Positions 1 through 5,922 of a DNA stretch of 6,792 nt are shown one piece after another. Source of the stretch: Promethearchaeota archaeon. Its GTDB lineage: Archaea > Asgardarchaeota > Thorarchaeia > Thorarchaeales > Thorarchaeaceae. Position 1 is the stretch's first letter; every line of letters starts with the position of its first letter. The notes beneath the pieces were generated by a model. It searched no databases. It had not been told where the DNA came from and saw only the letters and a program-made list of their open reading frames with translations. Position numbers and translations under genes: made by a program. The stretch is taken from positions 8,888 to 15,679 of the forward strand of contig JALVPN010000059.1 of NCBI GenBank assembly GCA_027031765.1. Reading direction: 5' to 3'.

Positions 1-1
1 C

Positions 2-559
2 CCTTCGTTAGAGCGCGGTGTCGACCCACCAGAGACCGGCGTGATGGAACGTCCTCCCAGGAAACCGGGCGAGAAAATGATGAACCGTGGCATGGCCTCG
101 TTTGTCGCAGTCGCCGGGTTCGTGGCCTTCGTGTCGTCGTCCTTCATATTCATGTGGGCACTGACCACATACGGTGGCTGGATCCCCGGCATCACGGGCC
201 CGGTGGTCGACTGGTCCGACCCAACATGGCGCCGCGTCCTCCTGCATGCCCGCACGGCCGTGTTCGCAGGTGTCGTGACCTTCGAGCTAGTCTTCGTGTG
301 GAACTGTCGTGATGAGTACCACCCCATCTGGCGCACCGACTGGAAACACTCGTGGGCACTGATGGCTGCGGTGCTCCTCTCTGCGGTCCTGACCCTCGCC
401 ACTATCTACGTGCCCTTCCTGCAGGTGCTGTTCCAGACAATGCCACTGAACGCGATTGACTGGGTCATCATCATAGCGACATGTATACCCGCGCTGTTGA
501 TACCGCCCCACATCCTCTTCGGACACACACACGAGCACTACCCTGGACAGCAACAGTAG
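2..559 (+). CDS. P-type cation-transporting ATPase, type IIA (SERCA/PMR1-like, probably Ca2+), C-terminal part (end of M6, then M7-M10); 5'-truncated by the window
   Basis: Frame 2 is open from base 2: PSLERGVDPPETGVMERPPRKPGE (post-M6 loop, typically ALGxxPxExDVMxRPPR), ARTAVFAGVVTFELVFVWNCR (M8) and IYVPFLQVLFQTMPLNAIDW (M9-M10 loop). This matches the Cation_ATPase_C pattern. TAG at 557-559. The GTG at 41 in the ORF track is internal, not the true start. Confidence 0.93.
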   Translation, partial: PSLERGVDPPETGVMERPPRKPGEKMMNRGMASFVAVAGFVAFVSSSFIFMWALTTYGGWIPGITGPVVDWSDPTWRRVLLHARTAVFAGVVTFELVFVWNCRDEYHPIWRTDWKHSWALMAAVLLSAVLTLATIYVPFLQVLFQTMPLNAIDWVIIIATCIPALLIPPHILFGHTHEHYPGQQQ

Positions 560-646
560 GGTACACCTCGTGTGAGTGGTGCACTCCCACACCCAAGGGG
601 GTGGGGACGCAGGTACAGAACATTTGTCGCAGCCTGTAGTCTGCAC

Positions 647-1483
647 TCAGAGGTGCTCGCGGACCCACGCCACCGCGTCTGCAAGGACTGCGGGCCCTTC
701 GGGGTCGTCATACGGGTCGTGGTACGCGCCCTCGTAGGTCCGCAGGGTCTTGTCGGCAGACGCTATTGACTCGAAGAACCGGATATTCTCCTCTGGCACC
801 ACAATCCTGTCGTCAAGTGGTTGCTGCATCAGTACCGGCAACACGATTTCCGGGCCCATGGTCACAGCCTCTGCGACGGCCCTGAAACCCTCTGCTGCAA
901 ACCTCGTGGTGACCATGTCAAAGCGCAGGGGGTCTTCTCTGTTCCGTCTGACAGCCTCCTTGCTCTTGAACACGAGGTCGAGGTCAAGTCCGTTGTCCAC
1001 GAGCTTCGTCGGGCATACCCTCGACAGCAGGCCCACCAGTGCCTTCAACGGCCGGCTCACCTTCAGCCGTTCCGAGAGCCCTGGTGACGACAGTACGAGT
1101 CCTGCGAGCCTGTCCGCCCTGCGTCTGGTAACGTAGGACACTGCTATCAGGCCGCCGAAGGAGTGACCGAACAAGAACAGTGGTCTCTCTGGGTGCTCCC
1201 CCTGGACCTGCTCAACCAGGGCGTCGACGTCGTCGAGGAACTCGTCGAAACGTTCTATGTGTCCCCTGACGCCGTCATACTCTCCAAAGCCCCTCAGGTC
1301 CGGGGCATAGAATGCAATCCCGTTCTGCTCATAGTATTCGCCAATGGTCGAAATCAGCCCGCTGTGGCTACCGAGCCCGTGGAGTCCAAGGACGACACCA
1401 TCCGGCTCCCCGTCCGGGGCCCAGACCCTCATGGCCATGCGCTTGCCGTCGTAGCCTGTGTAGTGCGTTCTTCTCAGTGGCAC
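647..1483 (-). CDS. Alpha/beta hydrolase, monoacylglycerol lipase/lysophospholipase (Hydrolase_4) family, 278 aa
   Basis: LHGLGSHSG oxyanion motif, DLRGFG, nucleophile elbow GHSFGG (Ser codon 1160-1162), acid in QQPLDDRIV, His in YEGAYHD. GTG start preceded 6 nt upstream by GTGGTGA. Confidence 0.92.
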   Translation of the reverse strand: MPLRRTHYTGYDGKRMAMRVWAPDGEPDGVVLGLHGLGSHSGLISTIGEYYEQNGIAFYAPDLRGFGEYDGVRGHIERFDEFLDDVDALVEQVQGEHPERPLFLFGHSFGGLIAVSYVTRRRADRLAGLVLSSPGLSERLKVSRPLKALVGLLSRVCPTKLVDNGLDLDLVFKSKEAVRRNREDPLRFDMVTTRFAAEGFRAVAEAVTMGPEIVLPVLMQQPLDDRIVVPEENIRFFESIASADKTLRTYEGAYHDPYDDPEGPAVLADAVAWVREHL

Positions 1484-1489
1484 TCGTTG

Positions 1490-1496
1490 TCACCAC
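1490..1496 (-). promoter_or_regulatory. Shine-Dalgarno site (GTGGTGA) for the hydrolase starting at 1483
   Basis: Minus strand reads GTGGTGA-caacga-GTG. GGTGA complements the archaeal 16S 3' tail (GAUCACCUCC). Confidence 0.6.
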
Positions 1497-1630
1497 AACA
1501 TGTGTGGGACGGGCCACCATTTTACTCTTCGTCCTCGACCGCAGGAGTGCTCTCCCAGCTCCAGAGACCCCTTGCTGGCAAGGTACAGCGCCCCCGCTGG
1601 GCCAGTCATCAGCCCCCGTGCAGGGCCCCA

Positions 1631-2479
1631 TCACCTCGGTAGTCTTCTCTCCAGCCACGCATAGATGTCATCGAGTACGCGGTCAGTACCAGACCCCCCG
1701 AGCAACATGTGGTAGTGGTCCTCGTAGAGCACCCATGTCTTGTCAGGTGACGAGAGCCGGTCATAGAACTCCCTGACCTTCCCTACCGGTACCTTGCTGT
1801 CCGCCCCAGCCTGCTGGAGCAGCACCGGCTGCTTGATGACGTCCGCTAGGCGAGAGGCCTCGTCCATCGCCCTGTACATGGATGTCACGAACCTCGGTGT
1901 CAGGGTGTCGCACCGTAGGGAATCCTCCTCCAGTCTCCTCACCACCTCCGGGTCGCCTGAGATTGCACTGCCCTCCATGTCCGCCGGATATGGTGTCTTG
2001 GTGTTGAGCAGCGACAGCACCCAGGCAACAAAGCGCTCCCACCGCCCCATCGGGTGAGCAAGCGCCACCATCGGGCACTGGAGTACCATCCCGTCCGTCA
2101 CAAGCGGGTATGCCAGGACGTACTTGATGACCACAAGCCCACCGAGGGACACCCCGAGCAGGTACGTGAGCCTGTTGATGAACCTGTCCTTCACCTGCAT
2201 CACGATGTTCTGGAGGTCCTCCACGTATTCCTCAAAACTGATCACATGACCACGCGTCCCGGTGTAGTGGCCGAAGCCCCGCATGTCCGGTGCAAAGAGG
2301 GCGAGCCCTCTCTCTGCCAAGAACTGCCCTGCTGTTTCGAGGTCGCCGCCGTGACCACCAAGGTCGTGGACGGCCACAACCAGCGCGCGCGGCCGCTCGT
2401 CCTCCGGTATCCACGCGTGCATGAACATGCGTGTACCGTCGTAGCCGATGTACTGTGTCTCCTCGTGCGCCGCGCTCAT
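1631..2479 (-). CDS. Alpha/beta hydrolase, second monoacylglycerol lipase/lysophospholipase-like paralogue, about 282 aa
   Basis: VHDLGGHGG, DMRGFG, GVSLGG (Ser codon 2147-2149), QQAGADSKV (acid), YEDHYHM (His). The N-terminus aligns with the neighbour (YxGYDGxRMxMxxWxP), which supports the ATG at 2479 over the upstream GTG at 2500 used by the track. Confidence 0.9.
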   Translation of the reverse strand: MSAAHEETQYIGYDGTRMFMHAWIPEDERPRALVVAVHDLGGHGGDLETAGQFLAERGLALFAPDMRGFGHYTGTRGHVISFEEYVEDLQNIVMQVKDRFINRLTYLLGVSLGGLVVIKYVLAYPLVTDGMVLQCPMVALAHPMGRWERFVAWVLSLLNTKTPYPADMEGSAISGDPEVVRRLEEDSLRCDTLTPRFVTSMYRAMDEASRLADVIKQPVLLQQAGADSKVPVGKVREFYDRLSSPDKTWVLYEDHYHMLLGGSGTDRVLDDIYAWLERRLPR

Positions 2480-2675
2480 ACCTACAGCCTGCACGCACAC
2501 CCTAATGTATTCTCTGCAATGCGTCGTCCCCGCCGACTGGCCGGCAAGAGGGACGGGAGTGTGTCCACGCAGGGGACATGCGGCGACGACGGCACAGTCT
2601 GGCCCGTGTGAGGGGGGCGGCCCGTCGCTGAGCCGCCCACCCGTACCAATGATGTCCTCCGGTGGCCCTCTCGTA

Positions 2676-3557
2676 CTAGAACCTCATCGGCTTCGGCTCG
2701 TCGCCTGAGTAGTCATAGAACCCGCGGCCGGCCTTCCTGCCCAGCCATCCAGCCCGCACCATCTTCCTGAGCAGTGCTGGCGCCCGGTATTTGCTGTCCT
2801 TGAACTCGTCGACAAAGTAGTCTGAGATGTACAGCAGGGTGTCCAGGCCCACAAAGTCGGCAAGCGTCAACGGTCCCATGGGCCAGTTCAGACCCAGCTT
2901 GATTGCAAGGTCCATGTCCTCGACCGTGGCGACGCCCTCCTGGACTGCAAAGATTGCCTCGTTGATTGCCGGTACCAGCAGGCGGTTGACCGCGAAGCCG
3001 GGGGCCTCGTTCACTAGCACGGTCTGTTTACCGAGCCTCTCAGAGACCCGTCTTATGACCTCCACCGTCTCGTCTGCTGTCGCCTGCCCCTTGATTATCT
3101 CTACCAGACGCATCACGGGTACCGGGTTGAAGAAGTGCATGCCTATGAACTTCTCCGGCCTGTTCGTGACCGCAGCCATCTGCGTGATGCTGATGCTCGA
3201 TGTGTTCGATGCCAGTATCGCATGTGGTGGTGCCAGGCCGTCGACCTCCTTCCATGTGTCGAGCTTCAGCTGCACCACCTCTGGGATGGCCTCTATTACG
3301 AGGTCGGCCTCTTTCACTGCCTCCTCAAGGTCAAGGACACCATCAATCCGCCCAAGTGTCGCCTCGATCTCCTCCTCTGTGGTCTTGCCCTTCTTCAGAC
3401 CACGTTCGAGGTTCTTCTTGATTGTGGCCATGCCCTTGTCGAGGAAGCGCTGCTCAATGTCTCGCATCTTCACCTCGTAGCCGGCCTGAGCACATACGTG
3501 GGCAATCCCGTTGCCCATCTGCCCTGCACCCAGCACGGCTATCTTCTTTATCTCCAT
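2676..3557 (-). CDS. hbd: 3-hydroxybutyryl-/3-hydroxyacyl-CoA dehydrogenase (NAD-dependent), 293 aa
   Basis: Rossmann motif IAVLGAGQMGNGIA, IEAIPE, ASNTSSISIT, catalytic GMHFFNPVPVM...VEII, PGFAVNRLL, PMGPLTLADFVGLD, GRKAGRGFYDY. Confidence 0.96.
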   Translation of the reverse strand: MEIKKIAVLGAGQMGNGIAHVCAQAGYEVKMRDIEQRFLDKGMATIKKNLERGLKKGKTTEEEIEATLGRIDGVLDLEEAVKEADLVIEAIPEVVQLKLDTWKEVDGLAPPHAILASNTSSISITQMAAVTNRPEKFIGMHFFNPVPVMRLVEIIKGQATADETVEVIRRVSERLGKQTVLVNEAPGFAVNRLLVPAINEAIFAVQEGVATVEDMDLAIKLGLNWPMGPLTLADFVGLDTLLYISDYFVDEFKDSKYRAPALLRKMVRAGWLGRKAGRGFYDYSGDEPKPMRF

Positions 3558-3567
3558 CTCTGGTGTT

Positions 3568-3573
3568 CCTCCT
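3568..3573 (-). promoter_or_regulatory. Shine-Dalgarno site (AGGAGG) for hbd
   Basis: Minus strand reads AGGAGG, 10 nt upstream of the ATG at 3557. Confidence 0.65.
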
Positions 3574-3614
3574 CTGTAGGGGGTGTCTACGCCACTCCCG
3601 CCGGTGCCTGCACG

Positions 3615-3627
3615 TAATATGTTTGAC
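3615..3627 (-). promoter_or_regulatory. Candidate archaeal BRE/TATA promoter for hbd
   Basis: Minus strand gtcaaac-ATATTA is an AT-rich island in GC-rich DNA. It would put the transcription start near 3590 and give a short leader containing the SD. The match to consensus is weak. Confidence 0.35.
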
Positions 3628-4165
3628 TGTTCACACGCCCACCACGGCCCGCATGTTATAGTACACGTGTTCTAGGGCTACATCACAGACCGACACGTTG
3701 GGCATGGTCCTGTGTAGTGGGGGTTGCACAGCTGTCCTATAGTGGTGTACATGTCGGCAGCAGGTCGTCGCTGACCCACTGAGATGATGCGGGTAGTGAG
3801 ATGTTGTGTACCATAACGGTGTTCGCGGCATGTGGCCTGCCCTCACATGCAGACATGCGTGGTGGTGGGATGGGGGTGTGGTTGTCCAGCAGGTCACAGG
3901 TGACAACTAACCAACCAAATAGTGTATGGCTGCTCAAGAGCGTTGCCAGAGGCACGCAGGCGTCACGTATCACGAGTTTCTTCGGACTTGCAGGTGCAGA
4001 TGAACGTCTAGGGGGGAGGGTGTCTCGTCGAGGGTCCTGCTGCAGTGCCCCGGGTTGTAGAAGTGTCAGAAGGGGCTGGCTGAAAGACCTTTCCAGTCGT
4101 TTGAGAGGGATTGCAACAGGAGTCAGACATGTCGTGTGGTGGTGTGCCGTAGGAGTGGGTGCCCG

Positions 4166-4179
4166 CAACAAGATTAATA
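4166..4179 (+). promoter_or_regulatory. Candidate archaeal BRE/TATA promoter for the 4214 gene
   Basis: caacaag-ATTAATA is an A-rich BRE-like stretch followed by a TATA-like box. The predicted transcription start near 4200-4203 lies just before aggtgtga (SD-like, 4203-4210) and the TTG at 4214. Confidence 0.45.
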
Positions 4180-4213
4180 CGAGTTCCAGCAGTCCGTAGT
4201 CTAGGTGTGACCA

Positions 4214-4936
4214 TTGAGTAGGCGTCCTGCATTCCTTACGGTAACGTACTCGGGCTCCGGCTTGAACCCGATGGACTACGAGCGCAAGATGGTGCGCGAG
4301 AAGAACGTGAAGTTTGATGGTGAGGACGGTACCCTTGAGGTCACCGACATCCGTCTGGTCTGGATCAAGAAGCCCTCGCGGTGGGGTGCAGTCAAGAAGG
4401 TCGGTGCGGTGGCCGGTGCCATTGCGGCTGCCGTGGCCGTGGACGCGCTCGGTGATGCTATTGGTGGTCGGGCCGGCCGTGCGGTCAGTCGGGTGGGCTG
4501 GCACGTTGGGGCCGCGATGGCCGGCGTGGCAATAACACACATGGCGCTGGACTCATTCTACAACCGTGATGAGCACGGTAACATGGAGAGCATCGCAATC
4601 CCAATCATCGCCATCAGCCAGGCCGCCCAGAGTGGTGACCGGCTGATTGTCGAGCTCAAGTCAGGCGGCACGGTCGAGTTCAAGTTCAAGCAGAAGAAAG
4701 TGATACCCACGGTGATTGCAAACATCACGAGCGCCCAGCAGGAGGGCAAGTGCCCATACTGCGGTGCGAGTACCATGAATTCACCGACGTGTCCGAACTG
4801 TGGTGCTCCAATCGACTCGTCAGCCACCGGCGGCCCGTCAGCCCCGGCGGGTGGTGGGAAGTTCTGCACCAAGTGTGGCCAGCCACTACCCGCAGATGCC
4901 CGTTTCTGTAGCAAGTGCGGTGCTCCCGTGAGCTAG
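4214..4936 (+). CDS. Hypothetical protein: putative split PH/GRAM-like domain with an inserted Gly/Ala-rich helical hairpin, plus two C-terminal zinc ribbons (4 CxxC)
   Basis: Coding-like codon usage (G/C-ending codons). DGTLEVTDIRLVWIKK...SIAIPIIAISQA...RLIVELKSGGTVEFKF plus a terminal helix is a PH-like strand pattern. CPYC-x9-CPNC and CTKC-x10-CSKC are zinc-ribbon pairs. Start is either TTG 4214 (SD-like element and promoter spacing) or ATG 4271. The CDS call is secure; the fold call is inference. Confidence 0.85.
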   Translation: MSRRPAFLTVTYSGSGLNPMDYERKMVREKNVKFDGEDGTLEVTDIRLVWIKKPSRWGAVKKVGAVAGAIAAAVAVDALGDAIGGRAGRAVSRVGWHVGAAMAGVAITHMALDSFYNRDEHGNMESIAIPIIAISQAAQSGDRLIVELKSGGTVEFKFKQKKVIPTVIANITSAQQEGKCPYCGASTMNSPTCPNCGAPIDSSATGGPSAPAGGGKFCTKCGQPLPADARFCSKCGAPVS

Positions 4937-4980: not shown

Positions 4981-5736
4981 CTACCTGAACAGGTTGAGTC
5001 CCCTGGGCCTGTTGATGTCAGCGCCATGCTCCTCACCGCACTCCACGTCCAGCCCCCTGACTATGACAAAGGGGACTCCTTCCCCGGCCTGCCCCATGAG
5101 GAGTTCTGCTGCTGCTGCCAGCTCGTCCGCTGTGCACACCTTTGACGAACGCAGGACGTAGCCGTACAGGTCGCTCTTCCCACGGTTGTGCGTGAATGCG
5201 TTGACTCCCGCGCAGCCGAGGGCCACGTTGACAGCCCCATCACGCCAGGGGCGTCCCTGAGTGTCGCTGACCACTACTCCCACATGTCTGCCCGTCCTCA
5301 TCACGATCTCGTCGCGGAAACGCTGTGCCGATGCGTCTGGGTCTTCCGGCAGGAGCACGTACGTCCCCCCGGGAGCGTTGGACCTGTCCACCCCGCTGAA
5401 ACTGCATATCGGCCCGCCGCGCGTTTCTGTTATGAGTGCCCGCGCCTCACGCAGGACATCGACGGCCTCCCGGAGGGCAAGTTCTACCTGTACCGGGTCG
5501 AAACCGTTCCTCTCGGCTATCCTGCGGGCCCTCTCACTGACCACGACGCTCTCTGCTGTGACGACCCGTCCCTCCACCTTCGAGACCACCTTGTGGGTGA
5601 TGACGACCACATCGCCGTCCTGGAGGTGCACCCCCTCAGAGCTGAGCCCCGTGAGCAGGTGTCCTACAATGTCGTCACCACTGCGGAAGTCGTGTCGTGT
5701 GCGTATCCCAATGACCCGGTACTCCTTGGTCACCAT
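4981..5736 (-). CDS. cofE: Coenzyme F420-0:L-glutamate (gamma-glutamyl) ligase, about 251 aa
   Basis: GDD..., DGDVVVITHKVVSKVEGR, GVDRSN, SDTQGRPWRDGAVNVALGCAG, DLYG, ADELAAAAELLMGQAGEGVPFVIVRG and a terminal RP...LFR are the CofE family motifs. The ATG at 5736 has GGGGTG 6 nt upstream; the track's GTG at 5745 lies inside that SD. Confidence 0.94.
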   Translation of the reverse strand: MVTKEYRVIGIRTRHDFRSGDDIVGHLLTGLSSEGVHLQDGDVVVITHKVVSKVEGRVVTAESVVVSERARRIAERNGFDPVQVELALREAVDVLREARALITETRGGPICSFSGVDRSNAPGGTYVLLPEDPDASAQRFRDEIVMRTGRHVGVVVSDTQGRPWRDGAVNVALGCAGVNAFTHNRGKSDLYGYVLRSSKVCTADELAAAAELLMGQAGEGVPFVIVRGLDVECGEEHGADINRPRGLNLFR

Positions 5737-5922
5737 GTCAGCCACCCCGTTGTCGCTGCCACAACAAGGCCGGTAATGCGAGCCTCACTCTACGCCCACT
5801 GGCTGGTGGAACCCTTGACCGGCGGCGTCCGAGTGCGCCCCGTGGAGCACGACATGCCCTGGTTGCGGTCTCCGATGCCATTTGCAGGCGCCCTGAGCGC
5901 TGCAGAGGGGCTCTGACGGCAA

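Follow-up and report, generated by a model that had tools for sequence, protein, structure and literature searches.

How Asgard archaea bring eukaryote-like machinery to their membranes is a question on which one gene of a Thorarchaeaceae genome bears. The gene lies in a 6,792-nucleotide stretch of contig JALVPN010000059.1, referred to here as the window, where it forms an open reading frame of 240 residues on the + strand (4214-4936) that starts with TTG. The original prediction had described its product as a pleckstrin homology (PH)-like domain of the GRAM or GLUE kind, split by a Gly/Ala-rich stretch and followed by zinc ribbons. What, then, would an archaeon do with a PH-like domain interrupted in this way? 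We propose, with a probability of about 0.5, that the protein is a cytoplasmic stand-alone adaptor in which a PH core carries the inserted segment as a monotopic membrane anchor and captures a partner through the terminal zinc ribbon and the PH surface.

Distribution of the family and fold of its N-terminal domain

The gene is real and conserved. A six-frame scan of 400 Asgard genomes found it in a single copy in 105 of them (E values down to 1e-91, profile positions 1-177 covered) and 165 database proteins match at E <= 0.001, which argues against a chance open reading frame. Occurrence is confined to five of about 33 Asgard families, in which 76/85, 18/19, 6/6, 3/3, and 1/1 genomes carry the gene, and the others are without it (0/135, 0/31, and 0/22, for example). 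By source name, the carriers are Thorarchaeota, Sifarchaeia, Jordarchaeia/Freyarchaeia, and Atabeyarchaeia, together with a few under Loki- or Hodarchaeota labels whose identity is Thor-like. When 1.84 billion representatives were searched exhaustively with HMMER, 12 clusters came back, 11 with the family architecture and one spurious; the latter, P0130 (1382 residues), is a eukaryotic Knl1 with MELT repeats and was rejected as a chance motif match.

Judged by these searches, the family is restricted to a subset of Asgard archaea. Residues 1-178 are covered by no Pfam or NCBIfam model and gave only weak matches (BBL5, DUF6232, and PRK11280). With 11 genuine clusters and no model for the N-terminal domain, the protein cannot be counted as a routine case of a widespread family already described, as had been suspected from the start. 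No description of the family was found in the literature searched, and the main texts of the structure-based papers on Asgard eukaryotic signature proteins (PMC12962969; bioRxiv 10.64898/2026.10.28.762692) do not mention Vps36, GLUE, BBS5, or pleckstrin. The Pfam family PF27000 PH_gly_zipper is not listed for the ESM-Atlas cluster of the family (87 members, Pfam 38.1 annotation); it is listed for a bacterial ESM-Atlas cluster of 134-residue proteins (10% of members), and no mention of it was found in the literature searched.

Two AlphaFold2 (AF2) models were used to assign the fold. The first is of the window protein and was built from a 54-sequence alignment (mean predicted local distance difference test score, pLDDT, of 79); the second, a replicate, was built from the Atabeyarchaeia subfamily only, which is about 25% identical, with its own 20-sequence alignment. 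In the first model, three strands are followed by a helix (residues 56-75), a low-confidence stretch (78-110), further strands, and a capping helix (161-177), and the strand order and the place of the insert are shared by both models. Since the two models come from separate alignments and agree in these respects, we regard the predicted seven-strand antiparallel PH beta-sandwich, closed by a C-terminal helix, as robust. Structural alignments to BBS5 and Vps36 begin as early as model residues 5-8.

Comparison with solved structures places the domain in the PH domain-like superfamily, all 50 top rows of VIA-align for both models being PH-like (Z 9.0-13.7). A Foldseek search of the PDB with the first model ranked yeast Vps36 GLUE (2cay) first (E 6e-5; probability 1.00 in the top rows), followed by BBS5, CARMIL PH, EAP45 GLUE, Lam6, and MTMR2. 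In exhaustive VIA-align comparisons, the same model scored highest with BBS5 (Z 13.1), MTMR2 PH-GRAM (12.6), pICln (12.0), TFIIH p62 (11.9), Vps36 (11.6), Lam6 (10.8), and EAP45 (10.4), and the Atabeyarchaeia model with BBS5 (13.7), Vps36 (12.7), and MTMR2 (12.2). In these models, then, the flanks of the insert fold together as a PH beta-sandwich whose nearest solved structures are those of the GLUE/BBS5/GRAM/TFIIH group, in agreement with the original prediction. In eukaryotes, PH domains of the GLUE, BBS5, and GRAM types recruit coat and sorting complexes to membranes. No bacterial PH structure was among the top 50 structural matches, though such relatives may exist.

BBS5 (PF07289; PDB 6vbu chain 5) was the best structural match of both models (109-113 residues aligned, root-mean-square deviation 2.3-2.8) and the only PDB sequence match below E 0.01. 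A profile of the N-terminal domain matched it at E 0.0017, and the match consists of three collinear segments around the insert, namely the N-terminal strand, which is an extra strand shared by the two proteins, the strand pair with the motif G-x-[FL]-x-[IL]-T-x-x-R-[IL]-V-W, and the 'IP..I' strand. The motif GTLEVTDIRLVW of the window protein, correctly placed at residues 39-50 by the original prediction, follows the pattern G-x-L-x-x-T-D-x-R-x-V-W, with G39, D45, R47, and W50 invariant in the family alignment. This first half of the PH domain aligns to BBS5 'GTFFITNVRIVWH'; beyond the insert the chain continues as SIAIPIIAISQA...LIVELKSGGTVEFKF before the helix at 161-177, and 'IALPL.aI' of this second half aligns to BBS5 'VSIPYLQI'. 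The second and third segments are about 6 residues apart in BBS5 versus about 70 in the window family. BBS5 further differs in being a subunit of the eukaryotic BBSome, in having two PH domains in tandem, and in its short beta3-beta4 loop (about 6 residues), and it has neither the glycine-zipper insert nor zinc ribbons.

When 53 members were scanned singly against Pfam, all matches of the PH part stayed below threshold: Vps36_ESCRT-II in 14/53, BBL5 in 4/53, PH_TFIIH in 4/53, and bPH_3 in 1/53 (E 0.051). The Vps36 GLUE family PF11605 did not match the window protein itself, and the best of the 14 relatives reached E 0.015, below the gathering score. The cut-off of BBL5 (PF07289) was likewise not reached (the best values being E 0.069, with a fragment of the window protein, and 0.0013, with a relative), and the protein has one PH domain, not two. 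A search of this genome for GRAM (PF02893) at E <= 10 matched only a protein on another contig, C117 (P0157, E 0.15), to which we return below. For bPH_3 (PF14470) there were no matches in this genome at E <= 1, and in several genomes compared its matches lie on other contigs than the family locus. Matches to DUF6232 (E 0.058-0.8) and to CcmL 2qw7 (E 0.31) were weak.

The GLUE domains of Vps36/EAP45 (PF11605; 2cay, 2hth, 2dx5) resemble the PH core well (Z 11.6-12.7) and supply its commonest sub-threshold Pfam family. The insert of yeast Vps36 lies in beta6-beta7, and PH domains split at beta3-beta4 are known from PLC-gamma and syntrophin. The likeness to yeast Vps36 drawn in the original prediction held in one respect, as both proteins combine a split PH domain with zinc-binding modules (PMC10936438), and the two differ in another, as the window protein is split at beta3-beta4, by a hydrophobic segment, and not at the zinc-finger site of Vps36. 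The ribbons of the window protein are C-terminal and of the DZR/Zn_Ribbon_1 type, whereas the zinc fingers of yeast Vps36 sit inside the PH domain, and no NZF/RanBP2-type family is among the Pfam matches of the window protein at E <= 0.01. Nor does the protein show the Vps36-type fusion to the ESCRT-II winged-helix part (EAP30): only the zinc ribbons follow the PH domain in its 240 residues, and the EAP30 genes of this genome are found on other contigs.

Proteins that combine a PH domain with a zinc ribbon are, as such, common among archaea. Archaeal bPH_3 + Zn_Ribbon_1 proteins likewise carry a PH-like domain and then a zinc ribbon, and their ESM-Atlas models (Nitrososphaerota, Microcaldota) gave TM scores of 0.43-0.55 by the matched model. 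These clusters, which were compared by models and annotation, differ in their length of 161-210 residues and in that they do reach bPH_3.

The insert in the beta3-beta4 loop

The segment between the PH halves consists of 44% Gly and Ala over 61 residues (55-115), whereas the remainder of the N-terminal domain has 14%; the Gly/Ala-rich stretch had thus been recognized rightly in the original prediction, but its length had been overestimated at about 70 residues. It is found in every subfamily, its column entropy (1.27) is about equal to that of the PH core (0.83-1.17), and small-residue columns are conserved at i/i+4 (G64-G68-A72 and G80-G84-G88). An insert conserved about like the PH core and keeping small residues at i+4 is not a free linker. 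Basic and aromatic residues flank it on both sides. Within it, an 18-residue hydrophobic helix A (about 63-80; Eisenberg mean hydrophobicity 0.64-0.69, almost no moment), whose hydrophobicity is borderline for a transmembrane segment, is followed by an Arg-faced, cationic, and strongly amphipathic middle segment (about 81-98; hydrophobic moment 0.83-0.98 over 11 residues) and by a second hydrophobic run of about 14 residues (about 97-112), which forms a short helix. Kyte-Doolittle maxima over 19 residues lie between 1.3 and 1.9. From this composition we infer a monotopic or interfacial membrane anchor.

In the adaptor that we propose, the core would be a PH-like domain of the GRAM/GLUE/BBS5 type. 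The PH halves align without the insert in BBS5 and in P0157, and we take the insert to be an enlarged beta3-beta4 loop: a short basic loop, such as P0157 has, would have grown into a segment of about 60 residues between the halves. This segment would dip into the cytoplasmic leaflet as a monotopic anchor, with the PH halves and the Cys4 ribbons remaining in the cytoplasm, and would replace the lipid-headgroup recognition used by eukaryotic PH domains. The terminal ribbon, on its flexible low-complexity linker, would together with the PH surface bind a partner and keep it at the membrane.

Two known proteins lend support to the idea of combining an anchor with a tethered ribbon. In LITAF, a zinc-binding domain is split by an in-plane hydrophobic anchor (PMC5142333), and in Haloferax, the zinc ribbon of CdpC, on a long linker, tethers FtsZ1 to the membrane (bioRxiv 10.64898/2026.07.16.738847). 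LITAF/SIMPLE offers an analogy only: it too is a small cytosolic zinc fold interrupted by a helical anchor, monotopic and with both ends cytosolic (PMC5142333), but in LITAF a zinc ribbon rather than a PH domain is interrupted, the protein is eukaryotic and endosomal, and there is no sequence relationship. If the anchor and a partner were confirmed, the family would provide a simple, testable handle on membrane targeting in Asgard archaea and would represent a PH domain that uses an inserted anchor in place of lipid recognition. As the family is missing from most Asgard families in the scan and its source names are mainly Thor-, Jord-/Frey-, and Atabeyarchaeia, it can say little directly about how eukaryotes arose.

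Several observations weigh against this adaptor. The summed Hessa energies of the insert are +3 to +8 kcal/mol and its hydrophobic runs are 14-18 residues long and Ala/Gly-rich, so that its helices are not classical transmembrane helices; the Arg-rich connecting loop also argues against a hairpin that fully crosses the membrane. AF2 confidence falls below 50 over residues 78-110. The glycine-zipper likeness is compositional and below threshold (TraT, Rick_17kDa_Anti, PRK11280), with glycine zipper 2TM PF05433 at E 0.96-7.1, TraT at 0.028-3.3, and NCBIfam PRK11280 at 0.0087, all far below cut-off. Phosphoinositide sites of PH domains usually have basic residues in the beta1-beta2 loop. This loop is acidic here (GEDG) and lacks them, leaving lipid recognition by the PH core itself unsupported. 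Finally, the neighbourhood indicates no partner. A conserved gene order, comprising 3-hydroxyacyl-CoA dehydrogenase, two alpha/beta hydrolases, CofE, and topoisomerase VI, is seen in Thorarchaeia only; Jord/Frey-like, Atabey, and other contigs have no neighbour in common with it, and function cannot be deduced from neighbours so unlike between classes.

Some of these points would suit a soluble PH-like scaffold, in which the insert would be a flexible loop or a cytoplasmic self-association zipper with no membrane contact. The positive Hessa sums, the short hydrophobic runs, the low AF2 confidence over residues 78-110, and the several Arg and acidic residues within the insert all speak for it. 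However, a loop of this kind would not be expected to keep its small residues at i+4 and to be conserved about like the PH core, the basic and aromatic brackets and the Arg face resemble interfacial segments, and helix A is hydrophobic with almost no moment. We consider a soluble scaffold possible but unlikely.

Zinc ribbons, a probable paralogue in the ESCRT locus, and rival roles

The C-terminal part carries four CxxC pairs (at 180, 193, 218, and 232), not two as first noted, and these make up two Cys4 ribbons, the number originally predicted. Pfam families are matched above their cut-offs, with Zn_Ribbon_1 (PF13240) at 3.2e-13 (49.4 bits versus 25), DZR (PF12773) at 1.6e-8 (35.0 versus 27.3), and Zn_ribbon_3 at 3.7e-8 (33.0 versus 27), and all eight Cys are invariant or nearly so. 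The terminal ribbon is present in all aligned subfamilies (Thor-like, Jord/Frey-like, and Atabey). In the Atabeyarchaeia form, ribbon 1 is absent and a Pro/Gln-rich linker leads to the single terminal ribbon. What all members share is therefore the N-terminal strand, the insert-bearing split PH domain, and a terminal ribbon on a flexible linker, and this linker differs widely in length and sequence between homologues. The Atabeyarchaeia linker (P0143, P0133) is rich in Pro, Gln, and Tyr with a repeated PPPQY, which fits the PPxY pattern and may reflect low-complexity composition alone. Some Thor-like homologues (P0064, P0072, P0106, P0117) carry a conserved extra segment between the ribbons, SMRITY...DGDG.PDSV.[IV]DY, which looks like a small structured or metal-binding insert and is not in the window protein.

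The endosomal sorting complex required for transport (ESCRT) genes of this genome are on contig C117 (EAP30 at 5411-5845 and Snf7 at 8365-8823). Adjoining both is the gene for P0157 (633 residues; L018:754-2652, - strand), which has N-terminal zinc ribbons, a coiled coil, a PH motif 'GTLFITDVRMVF', and an end resembling the Mod_r steadiness box (weak, E 0.076). In these parts P0157 matches Znr_PH_CC_SB (cog.011556; Makarova et al. 2024), a proposed Asgard ESCRT-I component with three N-terminal zinc ribbons, PH, coiled coil, and steadiness box (PMC10936438). After removal of the insert columns, the PH domain of the window family aligned by hhalign to the PH region of P0157 with a probability of 92.8% (P 4e-7, 75 columns), or 94.5% with a more diverse template (P 8e-8, 64 columns), against at most 0.9% for 1 reversed and 30 column-shuffled controls. 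Given this match, the PH domains of the window family and of P0157 are probably paralogous members of the broad PH-GRAM/bPH_3 group. Both proteins are Asgard proteins with a PH domain and zinc ribbons; they differ in that the window protein shares the PH domain only, lacks coiled coil and steadiness box, and has its ribbons at the C terminus. The beta3-beta4 loop of P0157 is short and basic (GRxRKK). Relatives of P0157 in other Asgard families reach Pfam bPH_3 above cut-off, whereas the window family never does, and a search of PDB sequences with the P0157 PH profile returned nothing meaningful.

This kinship invites a more specific reading, which we put forward as doubtful: the family would be a lineage-restricted paralogue of the ESCRT-I-like PH domain in which the basic loop was swapped for a permanent glycine-zipper anchor, making it a resident receptor that marks ESCRT or cytoskeletal sites through its tethered ribbon in cells without phosphoinositide signalling. 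If true, it would be a prokaryotic answer to the membrane targeting done in eukaryotes by GLUE, BBS5, and GRAM.

An Asgard ESCRT accessory in the stricter sense, that is, a GLUE-like receptor bringing ESCRT components or ubiquitin-like cargo to the membrane via PH domain and ribbons, appears improbable. The Vps36 GLUE domain is the top Foldseek match, and the probable paralogue beside Snf7 and EAP30 is of the type proposed as an ESCRT-I component (PMC10936438). Against this, the gene is on another contig and never adjoins ESCRT genes in the seven neighbourhoods read, which bears out the remark in the original prediction that it is not part of an ESCRT gene cluster. Most Asgard families in the scan are without the gene (0/135, 0/31, 0/22, for example), whereas PH proteins of the P0157 type are present in families lacking it as well, and the window protein contains neither a winged helix nor a steadiness box. 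The genome, 95% complete, yielded no ubiquitin (PF00240) at E <= 0.01, though it has EAP30 and two Snf7 genes. The evidence does not support a working ESCRT role.

We regard a nucleic-acid or transcription factor, with a TFIIH-p62/FACT-like PH domain binding acidic peptides and ribbons binding DNA or RNA, as highly improbable. The PH domain of TFIIH p62 does rank with the best structural matches (Z 11.4-11.9) and gives sub-threshold sequence matches, and zinc ribbons are common in archaeal transcription proteins. Nevertheless, BBS5, GLUE, and GRAM score equally or higher, such a factor would have no use for the conserved hydrophobic glycine-zipper insert, and adjacency to topoisomerase VI is found only in Thorarchaeia, where gene order is conserved anyway. 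That the insert forms membrane-perturbing or channel oligomers of glycine-zipper hairpins regulated by PH domain and ribbons is hardly credible: GxxxGxxxG motifs do occur in oligomeric membrane proteins and weak compositional matches to TraT and Rick_17kDa_Anti exist, but there is no significant similarity to any such family and the Arg-rich loop between the helices speaks against a full transmembrane hairpin.

Gene layout, upstream signals, and neighbourhood

The layout of the gene and its product is given in Table 1. The TTG start, two codons ahead of 'RP', is kept in the window and in 14 Thorarchaeial loci, and homologues in other classes start with ATG or GTG. The N-terminal extension RPxFLTVxYSGSGL is conserved as well, with six-frame matches in other families spanning the profile from positions 1-7 onward; together with the conserved TTG, this identifies the long form of the gene as the right one.

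Table 1. Layout of the split PH/zinc-ribbon gene in the window
Feature	Residues	Window coordinates	Strand	Remarks
TATA-box-like TTAATAC		4174..4180	+	40 nt upstream of start codon
Shine-Dalgarno-like GGTG		4204..4207	+	6 nt ahead of TTG start
TTG start and N-terminal extension, part of PH module	1-20	4214..4273	+	pLDDT 74-90
PH first half, strands beta1-beta3	21-54	4274..4375	+	AF2 strands 25-34, 37-44, 47-52; pLDDT 96-97
Gly/Ala-rich glycine-zipper-like insert, beta3-beta4 loop	55-115	4376..4558	+	composition, conservation
PH second half, strands beta4-beta7 and C-terminal capping helix	116-178	4559..4747	+	AF2 strands 116-118, 124-130, 134-140, 143-148, 153-158; helix 161-177; pLDDT 93-98
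Zinc ribbon 1, GKCPYCG...CPNCG, right behind PH helix	179-200	4748..4813	+	Pfam Zn_ribbon_3, DZR; pLDDT ~90
Flexible linker, Gly/Ser/Pro-rich	201-215	4814..4858	+	pLDDT < 50 over 204-213
Zinc ribbon 2, FCTKCG...FCSKCG, and stop codon	216-240	4859..4936	+	Pfam Zn_Ribbon_1, residues 217-239

Five loci (the window, L003, L004, L005, and L019) have TTAATAC or a similar A/T box 40-41 nt ahead of the start codon and GGTG about 6-9 nt ahead of it. By its position and conservation, TTAATAC may play a TATA-like role. With TTG, GGTG, and A/T box conserved at fixed distances, the gene appears to have promoter-like and ribosome-binding signals of its own, as the original prediction had proposed for the promoter-like element. 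The combination, in which TTG is a weak start codon, also points to a conserved short-leader transcript, predicted to begin about 10-15 nt ahead of the TTG, and possibly to deliberately low translation. Among sequencing runs, the sequence was listed for a hydrothermal-vent metagenome only, its probable source, and for no RNA data set, which bears on expression in neither direction.

The upstream block (window 1-3557; also in L003 and L005) contains the C terminus of a P-type ATPase, two tandem paralogous Hydrolase_4 genes, and the 3-hydroxyacyl-CoA dehydrogenase gene, in an order kept in Thorarchaeia; its lipid-metabolism flavour may be coincidental. CofE is convergent downstream in most loci. 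Between the divergent 3-hydroxyacyl-CoA dehydrogenase gene and the PH-protein gene is a gap of 656 bp (window 3558-4213), in which we found no Rfam family, no tRNA, no copy at another place of the genome, and no trace of the genes found at this position in a relative. On the + strand of the gap, G strongly outnumbers C, with a skew of about +0.23 to +0.25.

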